A DNA stretch of 64,000 nt from a virus. The DNA lies in IMG/VR virus record IMGVR_UViG_3300005613_000006, positions 1-64,000 of that record; one strand, 5' to 3'. The position numbers were made by a program, and so were the translations under genes. Of this stretch, positions 3,910 to 34,183 are shown in pieces. The notes beneath the pieces are model-generated. The model saw nothing but the letters and a program-made list of their open reading frames with translations, searched no databases and had not been told where the DNA came from. Numbering within the stretch: position 1 is the first letter of the stretch; the number at the start of each line of letters is the position of its first letter.

Positions 3910-3982
3910 GGCCTTGTAGTGTAAAGGCAGCACGACTGACTTTGAATCAGTCAGAGGTTGGGTTCAAATCCCCCCGAGGCTT
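3910..3982 (+). tRNA. tRNA-Gln(TTG), weak T-stem
   Basis: Cloverleaf; anticodon arm ACTGA-CTTTGAA-TCAGT; GGTTCAAATCC; only 3 T-stem pairs. Confidence 0.8.
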
Positions 3983-4043
3983 CTGGAGGCTCCGCTTCCC
4001 CAATTTCCCTTCGGCCCGCTCCCCTGCCACAAAGGGGGCATAT

Positions 4044-4114
4044 TGCCCGGTAGTGTAGTGGTAACACGCTGGTCTCTGGAACCAGAAATGTAAGTTCGAT
4101 TCTTACTCGGGCGG
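4044..4114 (+). tRNA. tRNA-Gln(CTG)
   Basis: Cloverleaf; CTGGT-CTCTGGA-ACCAG; GTAAG-TTCGATT-CTTAC. Confidence 0.9.
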
Positions 4115-4162
4115 CTTAATTCAGAGTCAATTTGGTGTATAATATAGTAGGAGAAATCCACT

Positions 4163-4561
4163 ATGAAAATATGCACCAGTTGTCACGAAGAAAAGCCGAA
4201 GTCGGCTTTCTCAAAAAATGCGCGTCGAAAAGACGGGCTTCAAACCGTTTGCAAACAATGCAAGCGTCTATACAATCGCTCTTATTACACCAGTCATAAA
4301 CAAGAGCATCTGGATAAAAACACTCGCATTCGCCAACGCAATCGGGCCTTTCTATCCGAGGTCAAGTCTAATAGTTGCTGTGCCGAGTGTGGTGAACATC
4401 ATCCTGCCACCCTACAGTTTCACCATTTAGATGGAACCGACAAGGACGAGACTATTTCTACTCTCTGCAATAGCCTAGCCTCTATCAATCGCATCAAGGC
4501 TGAGATGGCCAAGTGTATCATTTTGTGCGCCAACTGTCATGCTATTGAACATTGGGGGTAG
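4163..4561 (+). CDS. HNH homing endonuclease
   Basis: CxxC pairs, CAECG...LQFHH...KCIILCANCH; own TGGTGTATAATA promoter at 4133-4144. Confidence 0.85.
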   Translation: MKICTSCHEEKPKSAFSKNARRKDGLQTVCKQCKRLYNRSYYTSHKQEHLDKNTRIRQRNRAFLSEVKSNSCCAECGEHHPATLQFHHLDGTDKDETISTLCNSLASINRIKAEMAKCIILCANCHAIEHWG

Positions 4562-4604
4562 TACCTTTGGCCTGCAAGCAAATTCCATCCAGACTACCTC
4601 TCCT

Positions 4605-4660
4605 ACATTTTTGCTGACTACCATCTATTGCCAGACTTCTCGGGCTGGTTGGGGTATGAC
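4605..4660 (-). repeat. 56-nt conserved non-coding motif, copy A
   Basis: GTC-N21-GTCTGG-N10-TAGTCAGCAAAAATGT; aligns without gaps to 5910-5965 and 11751-11806. Confidence 0.8.
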
Positions 4661-4752
4661 AACAGACTGCTCCCCAGACCCGCCTTTCTAACCACGGCGT
4701 ATGGGGTAATAAGAAACCCCCAAGCGGCGTCCCGCCAGGGGGTTAGTCACGT

Positions 4753-5052
4753 TTAGCCAGGGTGACCGGCCCTGTCAACCAACTGCTCACCTTTCGGGAG
4801 CATGTCACTCAGGTTCTTTTCCCACTTCATCATGGGTGTCGGAACCTTCAAATTCACAGTCTCTTCTTCGACCTCATTTCCAATCTTGAGGCCCTCGATA
4901 AAGGCAGTATACCACACCAGTTGTCTCCCACCCGGAACGCCGCGTTTATAAAACCGGCCTCCGAGGTAGTAACCTACATCAGTGGTGAAGACACCATCGG
5001 GGGTTAGTCGTACAGTGGTGACTTTCATCCACACCCCTCCTCTTTTTCCCAA
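4753..5052 (-). CDS. hypothetical protein (true start probably ATG 5028)
   Basis: ATGA overlap with the upstream gene, GAGGAGG RBS. Confidence 0.55.
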   Translation of the reverse strand: MGKRGGVWMKVTTVRLTPDGVFTTDVGYYLGGRFYKRGVPGGRQLVWYTAFIEGLKIGNEVEEETVNLKVPTPMMKWEKNLSDMLPKGEQLVDRAGHPG

Positions 5053-5297
5053 TTCTCAAAAACAAAACCAGCGCCCCTAATAACATCCCCTACATCGAAG
5101 ACCTCACCATCCTTCGTGCAGGCGTCTGGCGTTTCACGGAACCCACACACGTCCACAATAACGTAGCGGGCGTCTAGGGTTTTACCCCCACCGAATTTTC
5201 CAAGGGCTTGTACGGCGGCATCCATTGGAGTTATCGACAGAATCACGACGGATAGTTCGCCGCTCCACACATACCACTTTGTTTTCCAAATGTCCAT
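5025..5297 (-). CDS. hypothetical protein
   Basis: RBS, coupled to neighbours. Confidence 0.55.
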   Translation of the reverse strand: MDIWKTKWYVWSGELSVVILSITPMDAAVQALGKFGGGKTLDARYVIVDVCGFRETPDACTKDGEVFDVGDVIRGAGFVFENWEKEEGCG

Positions 5298-5909
5298 CCT
5301 ACTTTCCTTTGGCCTTAATGGACCGGCAGAGTTTCATTGCCTTTTTGGTTATGGTGTCGAACGCGAACATTCTTCTCCACGTTTTCTCCATCATCTGTCC
5401 CCACCCACTACACCCATCGTAGGGCTGAGCAAAAGCCGGGGCTTGGCGTCCGACTACTTTCAGCGCGGTGCGTAGTGTGGACCAGCGGTATAGCCTTTTG
5501 TGGGGGGCTCGCCGCCTGCCGTTTGACGATTTTACACGCTTGTCGTTTTCTCATCTGTTTTTTGCCTATTCGAGACATGGGACAATATCTACCATCCACT
5601 CACAATAGTAGTTCTTGCCCTCTGGATTGGTAATGGTCTCAGGCAGGACGCCACAACCGGCCACATCCTTGACGGCCTCTTTTAGCTCGTCCACGCCTTC
5701 AAACTCTTGCACTTCACCGTCTGCAAATTTGACCTTCCACATTTTGGATTCTCCTACGTTCTTTTGAGATTACTGACTATCCTATTATAGCACAGGAACC
5801 GGCTTTGTCAACCCCCAGACTTTTGGATTTGTTGTCAACCCCTCTTGTGGCCACCCCCTCTTCCCTACATTTCTTCCCCCAAATGCTTTTCCCTTACACC
5901 CAGACTACC

Positions 5910-5965
5910 ACATTTTCGCTGACTACTGACCATAACCAGACCGATGGGGGAGGATTGGGTGAGAC
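5910..5965 (-). repeat. 56-nt conserved non-coding motif, copy B
   Basis: GTCTCACCCAATCCTCCCCCATCGGTCTGGTTATGGTCAGTAGTCAGCGAAAATGT, about 65 nt downstream of promoter 6037-6064. Confidence 0.8.
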
Positions 5966-6076
5966 TGAGACACCCATCCGTGCCCCCTCTTCTGGGGCCG
6001 CCGCCTCTTCCCCTCTTCTGGTGTTGCCTATACCCCATTATAGCACGGTGGCCGAACGTGTCAAGGTGTTTTGTCG

Positions 6077-6154
6077 TAAGTCCTTTGGTAGTAAGGGTTT
6101 AGGGCGTGCGGGGCGAGCCCCGGCTGCCGTAAGTCCTTTGCTGTTCACTACTTA
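6077..6154. repeat. paired-palindrome element #1
   Basis: TAAGTCCTT-N7-AAGGGTTTA, 28-bp GC hairpin spacer, TAAGTCCTT-N7-CACTACTTA. Confidence 0.9.
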
Positions 6155-6315
6155 CGTCGATTTCACTGCGTAGTGAACACGCCGGTTTGAGTGAACACCA
6201 ATAAACAAAGCCCCCATTTCTGGGGGCTAAGCCTAACCTTCGTTTTGACTCAGAAGGCCGAGTATAATCCCGACACACACAACCAGGAGGACGAGGATGT
6301 AACCCGCCATACGGG

Positions 6316-7062
6316 CTATACCGCTTGCGTCACGCACACGGCGTCGAACAGGCCGTGCAGCTTTTGCGTGCGGGTGGGTAACTCTGCCAGCGAACTACCC
6401 TTGAGGGTTTCGGTGAAGGCGTTGAACAGCCGCCAACCGTTCTTTCCCTTGAACTCGGGATGATTGGGAGCGTGCCACTGTTCCAGCACCTTGGGAACCC
6501 GCGTTGCGTTAATGGCCCTGCCGCGAAGGGCACGGCACACAATGTCGTGAGCCTGGGCATCCACCAGTTCGGTTTCCTTGTAGGCGTTGATGCGGGCATC
6601 CTGGGCGGTTCGCATATCGACCAAGCGACCGATGGCCTTTTGTACCAAGCCGGGAAGGTCGCGGTTGATGAAACGGGTATGACGACGACCCACAACTACC
6701 TCGGACGAAAACGCGAGGTTGTCGCAAACGAACACGCCAGAACCCAAGCAGATGCCAGCCGGGATGCTTTTGTCGTGCGAGTTACGCAAGCCGAAAACCA
6801 GGGAGTAGTCTTCGTGTTGGGCCTCACCGTTCTCGACCTGAAAGAGGCCGAAGTAACGCAAACCGTCACGATAGATGGCATGCGATTCGTTCACAACACG
6901 CAAGCCGTAGCCCGGCAGTAATTCTCGCAACAGGTCAATCAGCTTGGTGTGGGGGATGGGGCACCAACTCTGGGTGGGTTCCGGTGTTTCGATTCCAATG
7001 AGGGCACTTGCCTCAATCAGACGCGAACGCCCGGTGTCCAAACACAAATTCAAACTTCTCAT
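6316..7062 (-). CDS. DUF932/DUF945-family phage/plasmid protein
   Basis: GLRNSHDKS...GSGVFVCDNLAF and WRLFNAFTE signature; strong RBS and own promoter. Confidence 0.8.
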   Translation of the reverse strand: MRSLNLCLDTGRSRLIEASALIGIETPEPTQSWCPIPHTKLIDLLRELLPGYGLRVVNESHAIYRDGLRYFGLFQVENGEAQHEDYSLVFGLRNSHDKSIPAGICLGSGVFVCDNLAFSSEVVVGRRHTRFINRDLPGLVQKAIGRLVDMRTAQDARINAYKETELVDAQAHDIVCRALRGRAINATRVPKVLEQWHAPNHPEFKGKNGWRLFNAFTETLKGSSLAELPTRTQKLHGLFDAVCVTQAV

Positions 7063-7121
7063 GTCTCAAACTCCTCAAAAAAAACGAAAGGTTAGTTGGT
7101 TGATGCTTTCATTATAGCATA

Positions 7122-7331
7122 TCAGTCGAGATTGTCAAGGGCCTTTGCACAAGGTTCGCAAAGATTTGCTTCCTTGACGGTTTCCCTACCCCTCCCGAGA
7201 ACTATCGTCTTTGGGCCGTACTTGCCCTCCACCACCTTGGTGTAGGTCTTATCACGGGTCTGGATAACCCGCTTGTTTTGGGGGGTGCCATTGGGGGCTG
7301 GCTTATTGCAGCCGTCGCAGATAAAACTCAT
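7122..7331 (-). CDS. small zinc-finger protein
   Basis: CDGC...CEPC; GAGG RBS; own promoter. Confidence 0.65.
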   Translation of the reverse strand: MSFICDGCNKPAPNGTPQNKRVIQTRDKTYTKVVEGKYGPKTIVLGRGRETVKEANLCEPCAKALDNLD

Positions 7332-7472
7332 GGTCGCCTCGTAAGTTAGGATTCAGTTGGTCTACTGTAAGTATAACATAAGAATTGAAAATGTCAAGGA
7401 ACTCCGCACCAGCTATTTTGTATCCGGCTGGACCCTCTTGTTACGTCGGCCACTACTAGCGGCGAACGCCTA

Positions 7473-7546
7473 GCATACCCCCAAGGAATCGAACCCTGCC
7501 ACAGTGGGTTGGAACCACCGTCGCCACCTTGGAACATTGGGGTATG
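7473..7546 (-). tRNA. tRNA-Trp(CCA), atypical D-arm
   Basis: GGTGG-TTCCAAC-CCACT; CAGGG-TTCGATT-CCTTG; acceptor CATACCC/GGGTATG. Confidence 0.8.
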
Positions 7547-7566
7547 TCGGCCCTTGCGGGCCACGC

Positions 7567-7869
7567 TCAGTCGGCCTTGTCGGCGGCGGCTTGAGCCTTC
7601 AACGACGCTGCAATGGCGGCGTAGTCGTTCTTCTGTCGGCCACCCTTGGGTGCGACCTTCGGCTTGAGCAACTGCATGTCGGTGTTTTCCAGGCCCTTGC
7701 GGTACTGTCGCTCACGGCTGGCAAAGTTGCCTTCCTTGAGCCCCATACCTTCGCGAATCTCGCGTCGGGTCTTTCCGGCACGGCAGCCTGCATTGAACTG
7801 CAAGCAGAAGTCGCCAGCACTGATGGTTTCGGTCTTTTCCTTGGTCGCGGTTGCTTTTTCGTCGGCCAT
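7567..7869 (-). CDS. small basic, possibly DNA-binding protein
   Basis: GGAGAG RBS, K/R/A-rich, HTH-like KTRREIREGMGL. Confidence 0.6.
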   Translation of the reverse strand: MADEKATATKEKTETISAGDFCLQFNAGCRAGKTRREIREGMGLKEGNFASRERQYRKGLENTDMQLLKPKVAPKGGRQKNDYAAIAASLKAQAAADKAD

Positions 7870-8002
7870 GTGTGGCTCTCCTATAAAAGCGGATAACGGT
7901 GGTACAGCCTACACTGGCTGTTTCTTTCCCTTATTATAGCACACTTTCCTGATTTGTCAACCATTTTTCTCGCGGCTTTATTAGGATAGTTTTGCTGATA
8001 CA

Positions 8003-8050
8003 AAAAAGAGGTAGGCAACGTGACTAGTCGCGCCGTGTTGCCTACCCCTC
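8003..8050 (-). terminator. intrinsic terminator
   Basis: GGTAGGCAAC...GTTGCCTACC followed by T6 on the minus strand. Confidence 0.65.
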
Positions 8051-8348
8051 ACTTTCGCGGCCCAGAGGCTTGCTTTCCTTGTCGGGAGTGGCGGCTGCTT
8101 GGACTGGCTAAGTGGCTCAGAGCAAGATGATTTGCGACACGATAACCTCACCCTCAACAGGGAAGCCATCGACCAACACGACATACCCCGTAATGAGGGT
8201 TTGGATGTTGGTGTAGGAGTCGTCAATCAACAGTTGGAAGTCGATAATCTCAATCATCATTCTGTTTTCGGTTTGTGGTTTGTTCCCTTCAATACTCCAA
8301 TTATAGCATACCAATCGAATAAGTCAATCGTTTTCTAAGGAATAGTCG

Positions 8349-8398
8349 TAAGTGCTGTTGTGCCAACAACTTACGTCACGCGGGGCTGCAAGGGTTTA
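8349..8398. repeat. paired-palindrome element #2 (internally deleted)
   Basis: Full left palindrome, half spacer, then only AAGGGTTTA; the terminal TTA is the stop of the glycosylase gene. Confidence 0.8.
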
Positions 8399-8965
8399 GT
8401 GCGAGCTATATTTCTTCCACAAGTACAGGTCGAAATCCGCCACACTCACACCATCCGGCAGGAATCGCATGAATTCATCAGCGAGTTCCTTATACCTCTT
8501 GGCACTAGTGGGGGTGGACATCGGTGCATCAACCCCACAATCCCGTAGGAAATGTAGAATGTGAGTATCCAGAATAGGGTAGTCATACCCCTCCCTGCTG
8601 TGGGTCAGAAAGAAATGGGCCGTTTTGTGGCTAACTCCCTTTATCCCCATCAAATCCTCGAACGAACACACAAGAAGGTCGAGGTTGGCAAGGGCAGCAC
8701 TGCGGAGAAAATCCGCCTTCTGATTGTGCGGCGTAATACCACAGCTATGAAGCAACGCGGCGAACTGTCCTATTCCCCTATGTCGGCAATACTTGTTGAT
8801 TGCAGCGAGGTAGTGACGTGGCACCCGTAGCTTCTTGAGTAGCTTGTCAACAGCGGGGGCGATTCTCTTGGCTTGCTTGTTGGCTACACAGATTGAGAAA
8901 ATCAGAAACTCTTCCAACTCCCTCCCATCTCTTTTGTAGTTGGTAATCTTGTTGGGGTCTATCAT
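8396..8965 (-). CDS. HhH-GPD DNA glycosylase/AP lyase (Ogg-like)
   Basis: HhH motif LMGIKGVSHKTAHFFL with catalytic K, PILDTHI, Y.E, DLYLW; start MIDPN at 8965. Confidence 0.8.
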   Translation of the reverse strand: MIDPNKITNYKRDGRELEEFLIFSICVANKQAKRIAPAVDKLLKKLRVPRHYLAAINKYCRHRGIGQFAALLHSCGITPHNQKADFLRSAALANLDLLVCSFEDLMGIKGVSHKTAHFFLTHSREGYDYPILDTHILHFLRDCGVDAPMSTPTSAKRYKELADEFMRFLPDGVSVADFDLYLWKKYSSH

Positions 8966-9202
8966 GCTAATATCTCCACTACTTTCATTTCTTCTGCTAA
9001 TATCCAAGTTCCACCCTGAGATTGTGGGCGATTGAACTTCCGAACCCGTCGCAGTTGTACACGCGCCCACACTCTGCCCTTCTCAGACAGGTGGGGTGCT
9101 ACCTTCTCAATGGTGGCGTGCCAACCGGGGCGATGTGCGTACCCCTTGGTGGGGTGGTCTTCTGCGGGATACCATACCCCAACTCGATACGCAATTGCCC
9201 GC

Positions 9203-9988
9203 TTACGCCCTCGCCCCCCTCTCCTTACGGGAGTAGCCCCCCTCAGACTTCTTAATCTTCTGCCACGCGGAGGCAGCGTCCGACCCCTTCGGTTGGGTGC
9301 CATGCAGCAGAAGGGCGAAGTTCCCCCCAACAGTGGCAGCGTGACTATCATCGTGGTCAATCGGCATAGCCGTTTCATCACGCGAAAAAACTACTTTTGC
9401 GGTACGGATTTCCAGCTTCTTAATCAGGTGGTCATACTTCCCCCCAGCCGAACCAGTCAGCAGGAAGTTGTGAAGCAACACCCCCTTATAGAGGAATGAG
9501 AGGTCATACCCATCGAGGTACAGCCGATGGACAAAGGGTAGACTCTTGGTGTATGCGTAGAACAACACATCGGGACGTTGCTCAGCGGCACGCACAGCCC
9601 CCAATAGGTAGGTATACTTGAAGAAGTCCCCCGCAACGTGGTAGCGAAGCACCTTACACTTGGGGGGTAGACCGGCGAGGATAAGGTCGCAGACTTGCGA
9701 GGGGCCGCGACATGCCTTGATGCACTCCCAGTTCCGCAGACGGTTCTTATACACCGCCGGAAAGAGTACCTCTTGAGAGGCAGAGAAACACCTGAATTGG
9801 GTATATCGTCCGTCCTTGACAGACCGCTTGCCAGCGGCATCGAGTACCACCTTAGAGTGACAGTCCTTCGCACCGGGGCACGTATACCCCGAAAGGAGGT
9901 CGAGACTATAAATCTTCTCCCCCTTAACCAGACCTAGCACCTTACCCAAAGTCTCTATCTTCGCATTAGCTTCCGAGAAGTACAGCAT
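9203..9988 (-). CDS. phage 'gene product 88'-like Cys-cluster protein
   Basis: TCPGAKDC...CFS, LRYHVAGDF, FYAYTK; GGAGG RBS before ATG 9988. Confidence 0.7.
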   Translation of the reverse strand: MLYFSEANAKIETLGKVLGLVKGEKIYSLDLLSGYTCPGAKDCHSKVVLDAAGKRSVKDGRYTQFRCFSASQEVLFPAVYKNRLRNWECIKACRGPSQVCDLILAGLPPKCKVLRYHVAGDFFKYTYLLGAVRAAEQRPDVLFYAYTKSLPFVHRLYLDGYDLSFLYKGVLLHNFLLTGSAGGKYDHLIKKLEIRTAKVVFSRDETAMPIDHDDSHAATVGGNFALLLHGTQPKGSDAASAWQKIKKSEGGYSRKERGARA

Positions 9989-10078
9989 ACCACCCTCCGG
10001 TGTCATAGTGTAGTTGGTTGATGCCCTTATTATACCACCCCAGCGGGGAAAGTCAAGCCCTGTCAAGTCATTTTGTCC

Positions 10079-10156
10079 TAAGTCGTTGCTGTGTAACGGG
10101 TTACGTCGCGCGGGGCTAGCCCCGCTCGCCCTAAGTGCTTACGCCACAACGAGTTA
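10079..10156. repeat. paired-palindrome element #3
   Basis: TAAGTCGTT-N7-AACGGGTTA / 28 bp / TAAGTGCTT-N7-AACGAGTTA; the last TTA is the stop of ORF 10154-10375. Confidence 0.9.
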
Positions 10157-10375
10157 CGTCAAGTTCTGGATGGTCGAGGGTCCAAGTCTCCACAGAAACT
10201 CTTGCAGCCCAATCTCATCATCCATGCTACGGGGCGGCACTGGCAGTTCTCCCATCATGCAGCGATGTCGCCACCCATCAGGGTCGATAATTCTGACGCC
10301 AACAAGTTCCGCCCACTTGTGAGCAGTGTACTCATTATCAGCGTGGTCATACAGCCAATCCAGTAAGTTGTTCAC
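10154..10375 (-). CDS. hypothetical protein
   Basis: IIDPDGWR motif; ends in element #3. Confidence 0.6.
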   Translation of the reverse strand: MNNLLDWLYDHADNEYTAHKWAELVGVRIIDPDGWRHRCMMGELPVPPRSMDDEIGLQEFLWRLGPSTIQNLT

Positions 10376-10575
10376 GGGCGTAACCTTTTGGGCAACTGAT
10401 TGTAGGGAATGTGTAGCGTGTGGCTATCGGGGTGATTCACCTTGCGAACCACAACGGCGGTTGGCGTAATGCGAAGTACCTTTACCTTGAAACGCTGGTA
10501 AAGAAACAGAGCCCGCTGTTCCCTACGGCGTCTAGCGCTTTCAAGAACTATGCGGGCTACTCGCGAGGCTCATAG

Positions 10576-10646
10576 AGGGAAAGGTGGGAATCGAACTCAC
10601 AACCTATTGGTTAACGGCCAATCGCTTGCCTTTCAGCTTCACTCCC
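10576..10646 (-). tRNA. tRNA-Asn(GTT), C33 variant
   Basis: ATTGG-CCGTTAA-CCAAT; GTGAG-TTCGATT-CCCAC. Confidence 0.85.
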
Positions 10647-10980
10647 TTGCGTGTGTTTCTCTGTGGCAATTTGCACACATTAAATCACATTTGTCGAGTT
10701 CTTTTTGAATTTTCTCCCAACTGATTGTCTTGCCTGAGATTTGGAAGTCTTTGCCGTCTGGTTCTCGGTGGTGAAACTCTAGGGCATCAATACACTTATC
10801 GTATCCACAACAAGAGCATTCGCCGCCCAAGTAGTCAATCGCTCTTTGTTTCGTTCGTCGTCGCCAGTTTGTGACGTGTTCAACGCGGCACTTCTTGCAA
10901 CGCCAGCGGTTTGTTTTGCCCTCTGCCACAAATGTGGTTTTACCATGCTTCGGGCATTTTCTCTGTGTGGTTTTTCTCAT
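10639..10980 (-). CDS. HNH homing endonuclease
   Basis: CSCCGY...ALEFHH...KCDLMCANCHRE; TGA stop lies inside tRNA-Asn. Confidence 0.85.
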   Translation of the reverse strand: MRKTTQRKCPKHGKTTFVAEGKTNRWRCKKCRVEHVTNWRRRTKQRAIDYLGGECSCCGYDKCIDALEFHHREPDGKDFQISGKTISWEKIQKELDKCDLMCANCHRETHARE

Positions 10981-11121
10981 ATTCTATTATATACCAAAAC
11001 GGTGTAATTGTATGAGTTACACCACAACATTGTGGAAAGTAGCCCCTTTGGTCCTATCAACCTTCATTACTTCAATTAAGTGCTGTTGGAAAAAGGATTG
11101 TAGGAGCAAGGTGCTACTAAG

Positions 11122-11190
11122 TGGCAGGGGAGGGAGTCGCACCCCCAAGGCTCGGCTTATGGGGCCGTGCTGGAAACTGTTCCCCCTGCG
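11122..11190 (-). tRNA. tRNA-Met(CAT)-like, initiator-type 1:72 mismatch, short D-arm, C33
   Basis: CGCAGGG/CCCTGCC-A; CGGC-CCCATAA-GCCG; T-loop TGCGACT. Confidence 0.7.
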
Positions 11191-11750
11191 TTGTTTATTT
11201 CTTCGGCTTCGGCTTCTTGGGCCTCGGCTTGGGCTTGCGTTTAATCGCTAGGCCCCCTGTCTCCACGAATACGGCTGCTTCGTCGCCGCGTTCGGTCTTC
11301 AATGTTCGTCCGTTGGCCAGCTTGATTTCGATGGTCACTTATTCACCTTCTTGAGTTCGTCGGTGTGGATTAGTGTTCCGTACTCAGCTTCCAATTCTCT
11401 GGCTTTCAATCCCAGCCACATTACAATCGCGAATACCTGATTGCCGTTGTTCTGGAACTTCCTGATTTGTACTCTCTTACCGCGATGGGCACCGCTACCC
11501 CAGTCGAGGCTCACGGTACACTTGTCGCCAATCTTGAAGCCTTTTGTGTCCATATCCCTATTATACACCACTTTCCGGCTTTGTCAACTCATCTTCCTGC
11601 AAAAGCGGGCACTTTGTTTGAGCGTCGGCCACATCCTCAATCTCAGGATTGTCCCTACATTCCACCTTCATCCGGCTTGTTGCCAGAGTATCCACCGGCC
11701 TATGCTCATTCGCTGCACACTTCCAACACATAGCAAACATAATTCGCCTC

Positions 11751-11806
11751 AGATTTTCGCTGACTATTACCCATTGCCAGACCGAGCGGGCTGGATGGGG
11801 TGAGAC
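11751..11806 (-). repeat. 56-nt conserved non-coding motif, copy C
   Basis: GTCTCACCCCATCCAGCCCGCTCGGTCTGGCAATGGGTAATAGTCAGCGAAAATCT, downstream of promoter 11912-11939. Confidence 0.8.
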
Positions 11807-11960
11807 AAAGGCCAGGGCCTACATTGTACGGGTTTTTCGTTTAAGACTCGGGAACCGCAATAGACCGAGCCCCCTGTAAGGGTTCTAGCCAAACCTTTGC
11901 CTCACTCCCCTATTATAGCACACCGCCCCGAATTGTCAAGCGGGATTCTCTGAATCCTCC

Positions 11961-12038
11961 TAAGTGCTTACGCTGCAACACTTTATGCCCGGCGGGGCCA
12001 GCCCCGCTCGTCGTAAGTCCTTATGTGGCAACCACTTA
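11961..12038. repeat. paired-palindrome element #4
   Basis: 53-bp period; the last TTA is the stop of ORF 12036-12284. Confidence 0.9.
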
Positions 12039-12284
12039 TATCACTTTCGGGTCATCTTCATAATCCTCGGGGTATTCGTTGGCCATGTGTAGCAGTTGAA
12101 TGATGGTACCCAGCCCAATCTCTTGTTCTTCTGGGTGGTCTGCGTGTAGTGCCTTGACGATGAAAATATCAGCGGGTAGAGGTTCCCCCTCGGCAACTTT
12201 CTCCCTTACAAGCACCATGCAGGGCTCATACGGGTTGCCACCATCACGGTATTCGGTATCCTCTCCCCACTGAATTTCATACAT
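12036..12284 (-). CDS. acidic hypothetical protein
   Basis: GGAG RBS; ends in element #4. Confidence 0.6.
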   Translation of the reverse strand: MYEIQWGEDTEYRDGGNPYEPCMVLVREKVAEGEPLPADIFIVKALHADHPEEQEIGLGTIIQLLHMANEYPEDYEDDPKVI

Positions 12285-16999: not shown

Positions 17000-17403
17000 G
17001 TATGTAGGGGTCTACCCTCCTGCAAATTATCCTCATTGTTTGTGGCCGTCTGCCAGCTACTCACCGGCTGCCACGTCCATTCTCATATTATACCGTATGA
17101 GGCCGGTTTGTCAAGGGGAAAAACAAAGTGAATCGCCGCAGCGTTGTCAACTTGTGTTTTTCTTTCCTTTCTACTGTAATTATACACAACAGAAGCCAAA
17201 AAACAATACAACCCCCCAGATTACCTATGGCTCCGTCGCCGTAACTCCTTTCCCTACAATCACTTACATCAATCAACTATTTTCTACAATCCGAACTGGA
17301 CACCTTGGAAATGTGAATCTGCTCCCACTCTGCGGTGGCCCTTCCTGTGGGGGCGGGTATAGCAGGCTGGATTGGGTAGTACACCAGAGGCTACGCCTCG
17401 TCG

Positions 17404-32623: not shown

Positions 32624-34183
32624 ATGCCAGAACGTATTCCAATCTATACAGCCGAACGCGAAGCGGGCTTAGCCCACGCGATTGCGGCCCCTGATAGCTG
32701 TGCTGTGTCTTTCTACAGTCCGGTAAAGGCCGACACGGTTGAAATATCTAAGGAAGTCCTGGCAAAAATTGAGGAATCTCTAGGTCAGTCAAGTGACAAG
32801 TATGACCTATATCCTGTCAACACTATCCTAGTGTCAACAGGTTGGAACCAGAACGACGACATATTTGCCCGCGAATATACGTGGGCAGCTAGGTTTTCGC
32901 CCGAGGACAAGCCATTCAATTTGGGGCATGACCCCAACAAGATTATCGGCCACATAACTGGTAGGCGTGTCATTGACGCTGACTATCAGCTTATCCCTGA
33001 TGACACAACGACAGAAGATTTGCCGGATAAGTTTCATATCCTCACTTCTGCTGTGATTTATCGTCATATCAGTGGTAGGGATAAGGAACTAACGGCTGAG
33101 ATGGCAGAAATCATCGAAGGTATCCAACGCGGTGTTTGGTACGTGTCAATGGAAGTATTGTTTAACGATTTTGATTACGGGCTCACTGATGCTTTGGGGC
33201 AACAGAGGGTAATAGCTAGGCGCGAAGAAACAGCTTTCTTGACAAAACACTTACGTCGCTACCAGGGTACTGGGCAATACCAAGCATACAGGATTGGTCG
33301 TGTCCTCAAGGGGATGACATTTAGCGGGAAAGGTCTTGTTGAAGAACCCGCTAACCCTGAGAGTATCATTTTCAATGAAGCAACATCCTTTGCGGGTGTG
33401 CTGGCTACACTTGAAGATGAGAGAAGAATTTTTACAACTGTAGCTAATTCTGGAGAAAATTCAATGGCAGAAACCAATGAACTCCTCAAAGAGCAGAATG
33501 AAAGCCTAAAGAAGACTGTGGCTGATTTGGAAAAGAAGATGGCTGATTTTGATGCGAAAGCAGTTCAAGAGAAGCTAGATGCTCTCCAGGCAACCATTGA
33601 CGAGAAGGACGGCGCTATTGCTGACCTTAACGCCAAACTTGAGGCACAGACTGCATCTGAGAAAGAACTGACCGAGGCTGTCGAAACAGCTAAGGCAGCT
33701 ACGGCTGACGCAGAAAAGAAACTCGAAGAGGCGCAAGCAGAACTCAACAAGATTGCTGCCGAAGCAAAGAAGACCGAGCGCGTAAGCGCTTTGGTTGACA
33801 AGGGTGTAGATAAGGCAGATGCCGAATCTATCGTTGAAGAGTTCGATGCCCTTTCCGACGAAAAATTCGAGAAGGTCGTGGCCATGCAAGCCGACTTGGT
33901 TGAAGCCAAGAACGGTTTCATGGACAAGAAGAAAAAGGAAGAGGAAGAGAAGAAGAAGAAGGAAGCTAAGGCGAAAGCTGATGCCGAATCTGATGACTCT
34001 TCTGACGAAGATACCGACGCAGAGGGCGAGGCGGCTGCTGATGGCACTGACCTGGAAGGGGCAGAAGCCGAAGAAGACGCAGACCTGAATGCCGGTGGGG
34101 AAACCGAGGAAGAGGCACAAGCACAAGCAACAGCTAACTTGTCCAACTACCTTGGTAACGTACTTGCAAAAGGCAGAAAGTAA
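32624..34183 (+). CDS. prohead protease / scaffold fusion
   Basis: NQNDDIF, KPFNLGH, YVSMEV, GLVEEPANP; coiled-coil and acidic C-half; in-frame RBS plus ATG at 33464. Confidence 0.8.
   Translation: MPERIPIYTAEREAGLAHAIAAPDSCAVSFYSPVKADTVEISKEVLAKIEESLGQSSDKYDLYPVNTILVSTGWNQNDDIFAREYTWAARFSPEDKPFNLGHDPNKIIGHITGRRVIDADYQLIPDDTTTEDLPDKFHILTSAVIYRHISGRDKELTAEMAEIIEGIQRGVWYVSMEVLFNDFDYGLTDALGQQRVIARREETAFLTKHLRRYQGTGQYQAYRIGRVLKGMTFSGKGLVEEPANPESIIFNEATSFAGVLATLEDERRIFTTVANSGENSMAETNELLKEQNESLKKTVADLEKKMADFDAKAVQEKLDALQATIDEKDGAIADLNAKLEAQTASEKELTEAVETAKAATADAEKKLEEAQAELNKIAAEAKKTERVSALVDKGVDKADAESIVEEFDALSDEKFEKVVAMQADLVEAKNGFMDKKKKEEEEKKKKEAKAKADAESDDSSDEDTDAEGEAAADGTDLEGAEAEEDADLNAGGETEEEAQAQATANLSNYLGNVLAKGRK

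Follow-up and report, generated by a model that had tools for sequence, protein, structure and literature searches.

A clade-specific non-coding element in early regions of uncultured phages: a possible recognition sequence in early RNA

The minus strand of a phage genome deposited in IMG/VR (record IMGVR_UViG_3300005613_000006) carries three copies of a 56-nt element in its early region, which raises the question of what a short sequence that is kept in several places of a phage genome, and apparently not translated, is used for. The record comprises 172,878 bp and is rated complete; its first 64 kb (positions 1 to 64,000) were analysed and are called the window here. The early region covers approximately bases 1-22,000 of the minus strand and consists of short open reading frames (ORFs), tRNAs and terminators, and the plus strand from about 23 to 64 kb is occupied by structural genes. 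The copies are located at 4605-4660 (copy A), 5910-5965 (copy B) and 11751-11806 (copy C). A preliminary description of this DNA regarded them as a candidate new family of small RNAs (sRNAs) or a processing signal. We tentatively propose that the element, which is clade-specific and non-coding, serves as a recognition sequence in early phage RNA and would act as an operator at some positions and as a decoy at another. Its conservation and synteny, its non-coding nature, the lack of a conserved internal fold and its placement relative to promoters, terminators and start codons are direct observations and are described below before this proposal is weighed.

The three copies align without gaps and with fixed spacing over the full 56 nt, as had been described. 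The pattern GTCTGG-N10-TAGTCAGCRAAAAT occurs in three exact copies on the minus strand (4607-4636, 5912-5941 and 11753-11782) and in none of 100 dinucleotide shuffles; the rest of the 172,878-bp genome holds no further copy, and a single match with two mismatches at 32978 is unrelated. Copies A and B indeed share a downstream box, GGTAGTCTGG, at 4589-4598 and 5900-5909, respectively, also on the minus strand. A partial match at about 17365-17382, which the preliminary description added to the set, is a 13-nt blastn match of 92% identity with an E-value of 24 that is missed by both nhmmer and the covariance model, and it is therefore treated as chance. The element itself contains direct GTCWG sub-repeats, in the forms GTCTGG, AGTCWG and TAGTCAG.

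The suspicion that the copies form a paralogous family was confirmed in related phages. A covariance model built from the element (R1) gave, after nhmmer iteration, 24 matches with E<=2e-4, distributed over the window and seven other contigs; these and further related metagenome contigs are designated by L-numbers. One additional match beyond the 24 is present in L251, and a degenerate pattern of 47 columns matched nine JGI metagenome contigs. Contigs with close homologues of the neighbouring GP88-like protein bear the element, with four copies in L130 (84% protein identity) and three in L134 (61%). Twelve columns are invariant in an alignment of 23 copies (G1 U2, A6, A11, C18, U34, U41 A42 G43 C45 A46 G47), and another eight are kept in at least 90% of them. 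Between the window and L130 the motif is about 96% identical while the flanks diverge, and the three positions C, B and A are shared across phages with proteins that are only 55-61% identical. Every copy is co-oriented with local transcription, and a consensus promoter is found 19-202 nt upstream in 12 of 26 copies. The number of copies per contig varies, L141 having five and L139 four within 3.6 kb. The copies in the window are single; in relatives unit spacings of 63, 85, 114 and 254 nt occur, including a 63-nt tandem in L139. Sequence subclasses can be distinguished (GUCUCACCC, GUCACAGCY and GUACCAGCCAAACC), each of which is common to different phages, which makes the paralogues old.

The homologues leave little room for translation. 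No frame is open in all copies, stop codons occur in each frame somewhere and a shared start codon is lacking, in agreement with the earlier remark that no convincing shared reading frame is visible. Indels are found in eight copies, of -1 (five copies), -3 (two) and -4 nt (one), and column entropies by position modulo 3 (0.71/0.54/0.65) reveal no 3-nt periodicity. Codon-type conservation, which according to the preliminary description would point to a peptide, is thus absent, and on these alignments the element is non-coding.

A structured RNA is likewise not what the alignments suggest. For the 56-nt core, RNAalifold gives 0 pairs over the 23 copies, and the minimum free energies of ten units lie at z-scores between -0.85 and +0.85 relative to shuffles, with a value of -1.85 for the 166-nt leader of copy C. 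An all-against-all scan for column covariation yielded nothing coherent or convincing. An internal helix P2 (columns 13-18 with 24-30) was considered and rejected: it is 73% paired, shows no covariation above shuffles and breaks in L251. The 3' half of the motif is unpaired in nearly all predictions. Since the core has no fold and the z-scores are near 0, what is conserved appears to be a sequence with fixed spacing, as for direct recognition. Pairing with upstream sequence is a different matter. The claim that the C-rich part of each copy pairs with a different upstream sequence applies to about half of the family, and only modestly above cross-pairing controls: the C-rich segment of a copy finds a better pairing partner in the region upstream of that copy than in the corresponding regions of other copies (permutation p ~0.02), with about half of the copies ranking in the top three. 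It is clearest in the four C-type units, where motif columns 2-10 are paired with the beginning of the predicted transcript (GGGAGUGAG...) and the insert in between has 10 to ~100 nt; 81.5% of the cells are paired in this arrangement versus 39-57% when the segments are slid, and one compensatory change was found. Of the proposed sRNA family, the non-coding, conserved and paralogous character and the lack of an Rfam match thus stood, whereas the core is without consensus fold and has folding energies like those of shuffles. Because only the upstream pairing is modestly backed, the structured sRNA reading is only partly supported, and the label of a structured sRNA family overstates the sequence evidence.

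Each of the three positions has its own surroundings. Copy C (minus strand; class GUCUCACCC; 73.6 bits, E 1.3e-13) is located in the 5' leader of a small ORF with four cysteines (Cys4), 15 nt before the ATG at 11740. The leader follows a consensus sigma-70-type promoter at 11912-11939 (minus; TTGACA-16-TATAAT with TG), and the predicted 5' end of its transcript, GGGGAGTGAGGCAAAGG at 11894-11910 (minus), pairs with 11797-11811 (CCTTTGTCTCACCCC), a segment that takes in the first 10 nt of copy C; a variable insert is enclosed by this helix. The Cys4 ORF directly downstream (11561-11740, minus) encodes a zinc-ribbon-like polypeptide of 59 amino acids for which Pfam has no family. It is kept behind the C-type copies of L130, L141 and L134, in the last of which it is a remnant shortened at the N-terminus, and in these phages and the window the C-type copies end 2-18 nt before the start codon of this one small gene. 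The Cys4 protein was considered as an obligate partner of the element and ruled out, since homologues occur in L145 and L146 without the motif upstream. Its conserved C-terminus, LTKPESGV followed by the stop codon, is coded by the next consensus promoter (TTGACAAAGCCGGAAAGTGGTGTATAAT, window 11560-11587, minus), so that the apparent protein conservation may be promoter conservation.

Copy B (minus strand; 68.6 bits) lies in an ORF-free unit flanked by two consensus promoters at 6037-6064 and 5784-5811 (both minus), and nothing else in this unit is conserved. The view that the copy is essentially all that lies between the promoters proved correct, no plausible ORF being present. A G-rich segment, GAGGGGGCACGGATGGGTG at 5971-5989 (minus), can pair with the C-rich half of the copy. 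The GGTAGTCTGG box that follows is kept in L130 and resembles a truncated extra repeat unit, and the promoter that closes the unit has ATAGTCAG just after its -10 box. The same locus, which follows a DUF932 gene, is ORF-free in each relative examined and has its own consensus promoter in most. One unit is present in the window, two in L130 and three or more in L145 and L251; in these distant relatives the units are variants, the three of L145 ending in AGUCAGCUA and those of L251 in GUAGCAAGCCAAA, and L144 has repeated AAGUCAAAA boxes as a recognisable variant. The additional 85-nt unit of L130 (L130:14602-14686) belongs to another subclass (GUACUAGCCAAACC...), and its insertion point in the B locus lies precisely between CATTTG and GGGG (compare window 5866-5868). 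In L146 (12740-13700) and L253 (11990-12700) the locus after the DUF932 gene consists of 0.7-1.2 kb of ORF-free, strongly AT-rich DNA in which TAGTC boxes are scattered; the genomes have about 50% GC. An origin-like region is conceivable here, as is a long non-coding RNA. The promoters of B and C are each preceded by a 'paired palindrome' element of the form AAGGACTTACG...GC-rich hairpin (window 6080-6145 and 11960-12035, minus), variants of which are also found before the B-locus promoter of L144 (L144:12160-12250).

Copy A (minus strand; 64.8 bits) is found 50 nt past an intrinsic-terminator-like hairpin with TTTCTT (4711-4742, minus) that ends the upstream operon and is kept before the A-type copies of L130, L135 and L134. 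In these four phages, the window included, the copies lie 11-90 nt after such a hairpin, and L134 leaves no room for a promoter. Because copy A has no promoter and is preceded by a terminator, it would reach RNA only by read-through. A Shine-Dalgarno sequence and a start codon follow the A-type copies, the distance from copy end to start being 21 nt in the window and 21-28 nt across the type. This start codon opens a gene of 317 amino acids in L134 and only a remnant in L130 and the window, where AGGAGAGG and an ATG open no more than 15 codons, the beginning of the gene that is complete in L134. Of the three copies, B alone forms a unit by itself; C and A are part of 5' leaders, and A lacks a promoter of its own. 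Facing copy A on the plus strand is a convergent HNH endonuclease gene (4163-4561) which is absent there in L130 and L134. Its product (132 amino acids; PHROG 2255, E 5.6e-37) is encoded between copy A and a convergent pair of tRNA-Gln genes (UUG and CUG; 3910-4115, plus) found opposite the A-type copies of the window, L130, L134 and L135, and the arrangement looks like a homing-endonuclease insertion with gene loss.

Known RNA families do not explain the element. There is no credible Rfam match at the three copies, either in a gathering-level scan of the window or in an E-value scan of 4300-12200, which agrees with its being a candidate new family. The Rfam 15 gathering scan of the window returned four tRNAs only, and a weak P15 match that overlaps copy A on the opposite (plus) strand has an E-value of 2.6 and 18 bits versus a gathering threshold of 70. 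Neither ARAGORN nor the Rfam tRNA model places a tRNA at any copy. Inspection by eye for hammerhead, pistol and other ribozyme cores, C/D-box order, T-box, Y RNA and Yfr1 found no defining cores, and these had no Rfam matches. Searches outside the clade were equally negative. In IMG/VR a 14-base pattern had chance matches only, and more specific patterns found nothing outside the phage's own genome; the 47-column pattern had no match in IMG/VR and 0 matches in a set of 185,579 species, each represented by one genome. In the same species set, a scan for tandem TAGTCAGCGA gave 83 loci, all of them unrelated coding or REP-like sequences, with no CRISPR-like array. With model R1, neither the 165-kb relative G001 nor L144-L146 yielded a match, and the same held for 151 cyanobacterial genomes; a BLAST search with copy B against 301 cyanobacterial genomes gave chance-level matches only. 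These genomes may not include that of the host. The complement of the motif tail occurs in 30 of 401 cyanobacterial genomes, not above a reversed-pattern control. Within the phage, duplex energies and blastn-short retrieved as target only the element's own antisense, complements of the tail or the whole motif not exceeding chance, and a literature search for the tail sequence returned primers only. The complementary targets and the CRISPR or toxin-antitoxin relatives for which the preliminary description suggested a search in the host did not turn up in the phage, the sampled cyanobacteria or the species-wide scan.

We infer from these observations that the element may act at the level of RNA, by binding a protein, with the logic of an operator plus a decoy. 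The invariant part, (R)UAGUCAGCGA, together with the preceding GUCUGG-CAAU-AGUCWG, would be read as largely unstructured sequence by a candidate protein encoded by the phage or the host. At the C and A positions, the bound protein would control translation or stability of the downstream message, an operator-like role suggested by the distance of 2-28 nt from the invariant part to the ribosome-binding site or start codon that follows. At the B locus, a strong early promoter and one to four units, depending on the phage, would produce an RNA to which the same factor binds and by which it is titrated, in the manner of a decoy or sponge. Several points weigh against this proposal. In five or six copies of relatives the -35 box of the next promoter stands 6-11 nt past TAGTCAGCG, which also fits a role at the DNA level. 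Copy A has no promoter of its own and lies behind a terminator, and the Cys4 genes of L145 and L146 do without the motif. The pairing statistics are modest, about half of the copies having no convincing partner. As B is not followed by a terminator, processing would be needed to obtain a discrete small RNA from this unit. Co-orientation with transcription is weak evidence because all genes of the region are on the same strand. A more elaborate version, in which the element is a self-contained RNA titration circuit or a decoy against a host factor, with the candidate RNA-binding protein partitioned between decoy and mRNAs, we consider distinctly unlikely on the sequence evidence; the protein would then possibly be a host defence or takeover target.

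Other explanations account for parts of the same evidence. The element could be a DNA-level binding site of a phage protein, for example one for the regulation of early promoters, for replication in the manner of an iteron or for organisation, with GTCTGG, AGTCWG and TAGTCAG as subsites. The unstructured core and the direct GTCWG sub-repeats within it would suit such a site, as would the -35 boxes of following promoters that begin 6-27 nt after the motif in L134, L140, L141 (three copies) and L143, the TAGTCAG box that is found inside the promoter spacer of L141 and L140 and, for the window promoter at 5811, at the start site, the long, AT-rich, repeat-bearing and origin-like B locus of L146 and L253, and the poorly transcribed spot that copy A occupies behind a terminator. 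We nevertheless regard a DNA site as rather unlikely, because no copy in the window adjoins a promoter (the next one is 105 nt downstream of B and 170 nt downstream of C, and A has none), the sub-repeats, spaced by 11, 7 and 18 bp, lack helical phasing, each copy's C-rich half is specific in its pairing with that copy's upstream sequence, the transcript 5' end included, and all copies are co-oriented with transcription. TAGTCWG was also examined as a general operator, an idea that was dropped since the sequence is not enriched genome-wide or at promoters (26 occurrences on the minus strand versus ~22 expected), which speaks against a DNA site as well. A cis-acting signal, either an antitermination or pause element comparable to HK022 put, lambda nut or ops, or a signal for endonuclease processing or stability that sets the termini of early transcripts, is unlikely too. 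It would agree with leaders downstream of strong early promoters (the 12 of 26 copies mentioned above), with few copies per genome in a region punctuated by terminators, with the base-paired 5' end of the C type, which recalls 5' stabilisers, and with the candidate tail GCGAAAAU, an A-rich single strand after hairpins being typical of RNase E-type sites; the tail also includes GGTAG, which we take to be shared with ops. On the other hand, no two-hairpin structure is conserved, Rfam including JUMPstart gives no match, copy A is behind rather than ahead of the operon terminator and faces convergent tRNA genes, and a unit such as B that consists of nothing but the signal, as well as the tandem arrays, would be hard to explain by a role in cis alone.

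A trans-acting RNA, either an anti-defence mimic of a host RNA (CRISPR repeat or type III antitoxin) or an antisense sRNA with the conserved tail as seed, appears decidedly improbable. The early strong promoter of an ORF-free unit, the changes in copy number by insertion or duplication (the 85-nt unit of L130, the 63-nt tandem of L139, the three units of L145) and the A-rich end, which resembles the cleavage contexts of type III toxins, are what such an RNA might display. Against it stand the tail complement, which exceeds neither chance in the phage nor the reversed-pattern control in the 401 cyanobacterial genomes, the lack of model or BLAST matches beyond chance in the 151 and 301 genomes, the species-wide scan with 0 motif copies and only unrelated repeats for tandem TAGTCAGCGA, and the units of 55-114 nt, which exceed CRISPR or type III antitoxin repeats in length; the genome searches are weak evidence in this respect because the searched genomes may not include the host. 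Finally, a neutral or selfish intergenic repeat spreading in the early region, or a short peptide-coding sequence, is highly improbable. Copy number and position do vary among relatives, as in L141 and L139, but three positions are syntenic at 55-61% protein identity, the motif is far better kept than its flanks and neither target-site duplications nor terminal repeats were seen. Frame 3 is open in 18 of the 23 copies, but a peptide is made improbable by the frame-breaking indels and stop codons and by the absence of both a common start codon and codon periodicity.

The genomic context of the element is that of a probably cyanophage-like phage, as indicated by the GP88-family protein of the early region, which has its closest cultured relatives in Synechococcus phages, and by the presence of a wcaG RNA. 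The latter motif, otherwise from cyanobacteria and marine phages, is located at 146342-146441 of the genome (L152:3142-3241, minus) with 47 bits, above gathering and within a tRNA-rich region. A gathering-level Rfam scan of 64-173 kb gave 25 tRNAs; neither RNase P RNA nor tmRNA was among the matches. Near-consensus sigma-70-type promoters (TTGACA-N16-TATAAT with at most one mismatch and a 16-18-bp spacer, mostly with TG-extended -10 boxes) are confined to the minus strand in the whole genome (32 of 32), and none is found on the plus strand that bears the structural genes. Some small RNA calls in the window differ between programs. The tRNA at 10576-10646 (minus; 50 bits with Rfam) is missed by ARAGORN, and the tRNA-Trp that ARAGORN calls at 7473-7545 is only a weak tRNA-Sec-like match in Rfam. 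A sub-threshold Tymo_tRNA-like match is present at 11109-11188 (minus; 32.7 bits, E 7e-4).

Large uncultured phages hold many conserved non-coding elements of unassigned role, among which the one described here is unusually well defined, with 16 of 56 columns kept in at least 90% of copies (12 invariant), three syntenic positions and a varying copy number in one locus. If it is a binding platform for a regulator or host factor, it would represent a new RNA-protein module in early gene control or counter-defence, and the invariant UAGUCAGCGA box would offer a handle to fish out the partner. A titration circuit, if true, would be a new protein-RNA recognition system without a described relative. 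Should the element act as DNA, this phage clade would have in it a new site of regulation or replication.

Among known systems, several resemble the element in part. Similar to CsrB/RsmZ and the leaders bound by CsrA, it combines a recognition sequence beside start codons with ORF-free transcripts that contain one to several copies, an analogy that concerns the possible logic. None of the defining features of that system was found: the boxes are GUCWG and UAGUCAGCGA, not GGA in hairpin loops, no CsrA-type partner came up, although no search aimed at one was made, and the element has about 55 nt with a fixed internal layout, is phage-encoded and is known here from sequence alone. Phage T4 provides another comparison with the operators of the RegA and gene 32 type, which like our element are largely unstructured, sequence-specific and near the ribosome-binding sites of early genes. 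The T4 operators are short and poorly conserved, whereas the element has 12 invariant columns and copies away from any ORF; a RegA homologue was not found, and no search aimed at one was made. HK022 put, lambda nut and ops-JUMPstart also occur in few, orientation-specific copies, in leaders after early promoters and in a terminator-rich region. The placement of copies B and C is compatible with put or nut, that of copy A, behind a terminator, is not; unlike these signals, the element has no conserved two-hairpin fold, boxA/boxB or JUMPstart match.

Phages are also known to imitate host RNAs. Racr are solitary CRISPR repeats of phages that mimic host immunity RNA (PMC10651486), and the pseudo-ToxI of phage PhiTE mimics a host antitoxin RNA (PMC3475682). 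With these the element shares ORF-free early phage loci in which the repeat number varies among relatives. A Racr is recognised by a match of 28-37 nt to a host CRISPR repeat, and type III antitoxins consist of tandem direct repeats of ~34-45 nt that each form a pseudoknot with toxin cleavage sites at its borders. The units of 55-114 nt are longer than both, and no likeness to CRISPR or antitoxin arrays was found in the genomes searched, which may not include that of the host. As far as can be judged from sequence, the element does not belong to the Rfam families and does not correspond to put/nut, CsrB, tRNA-like RNAs or a micro-ORF; a relation to ToxI-like RNAs is not apparent in the genomes searched. 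The orphan motifs of Rfam, for example wcaG, PhotoRC and Yfr1/Yfr2, differ from it in having an Rfam model, and the element is without a supported consensus secondary structure; like them, it is a clade-restricted non-coding motif in a cyanophage-like genome. The element is thus an orphan conserved non-coding motif of a phage clade, which is a known kind, and it is new as a family.

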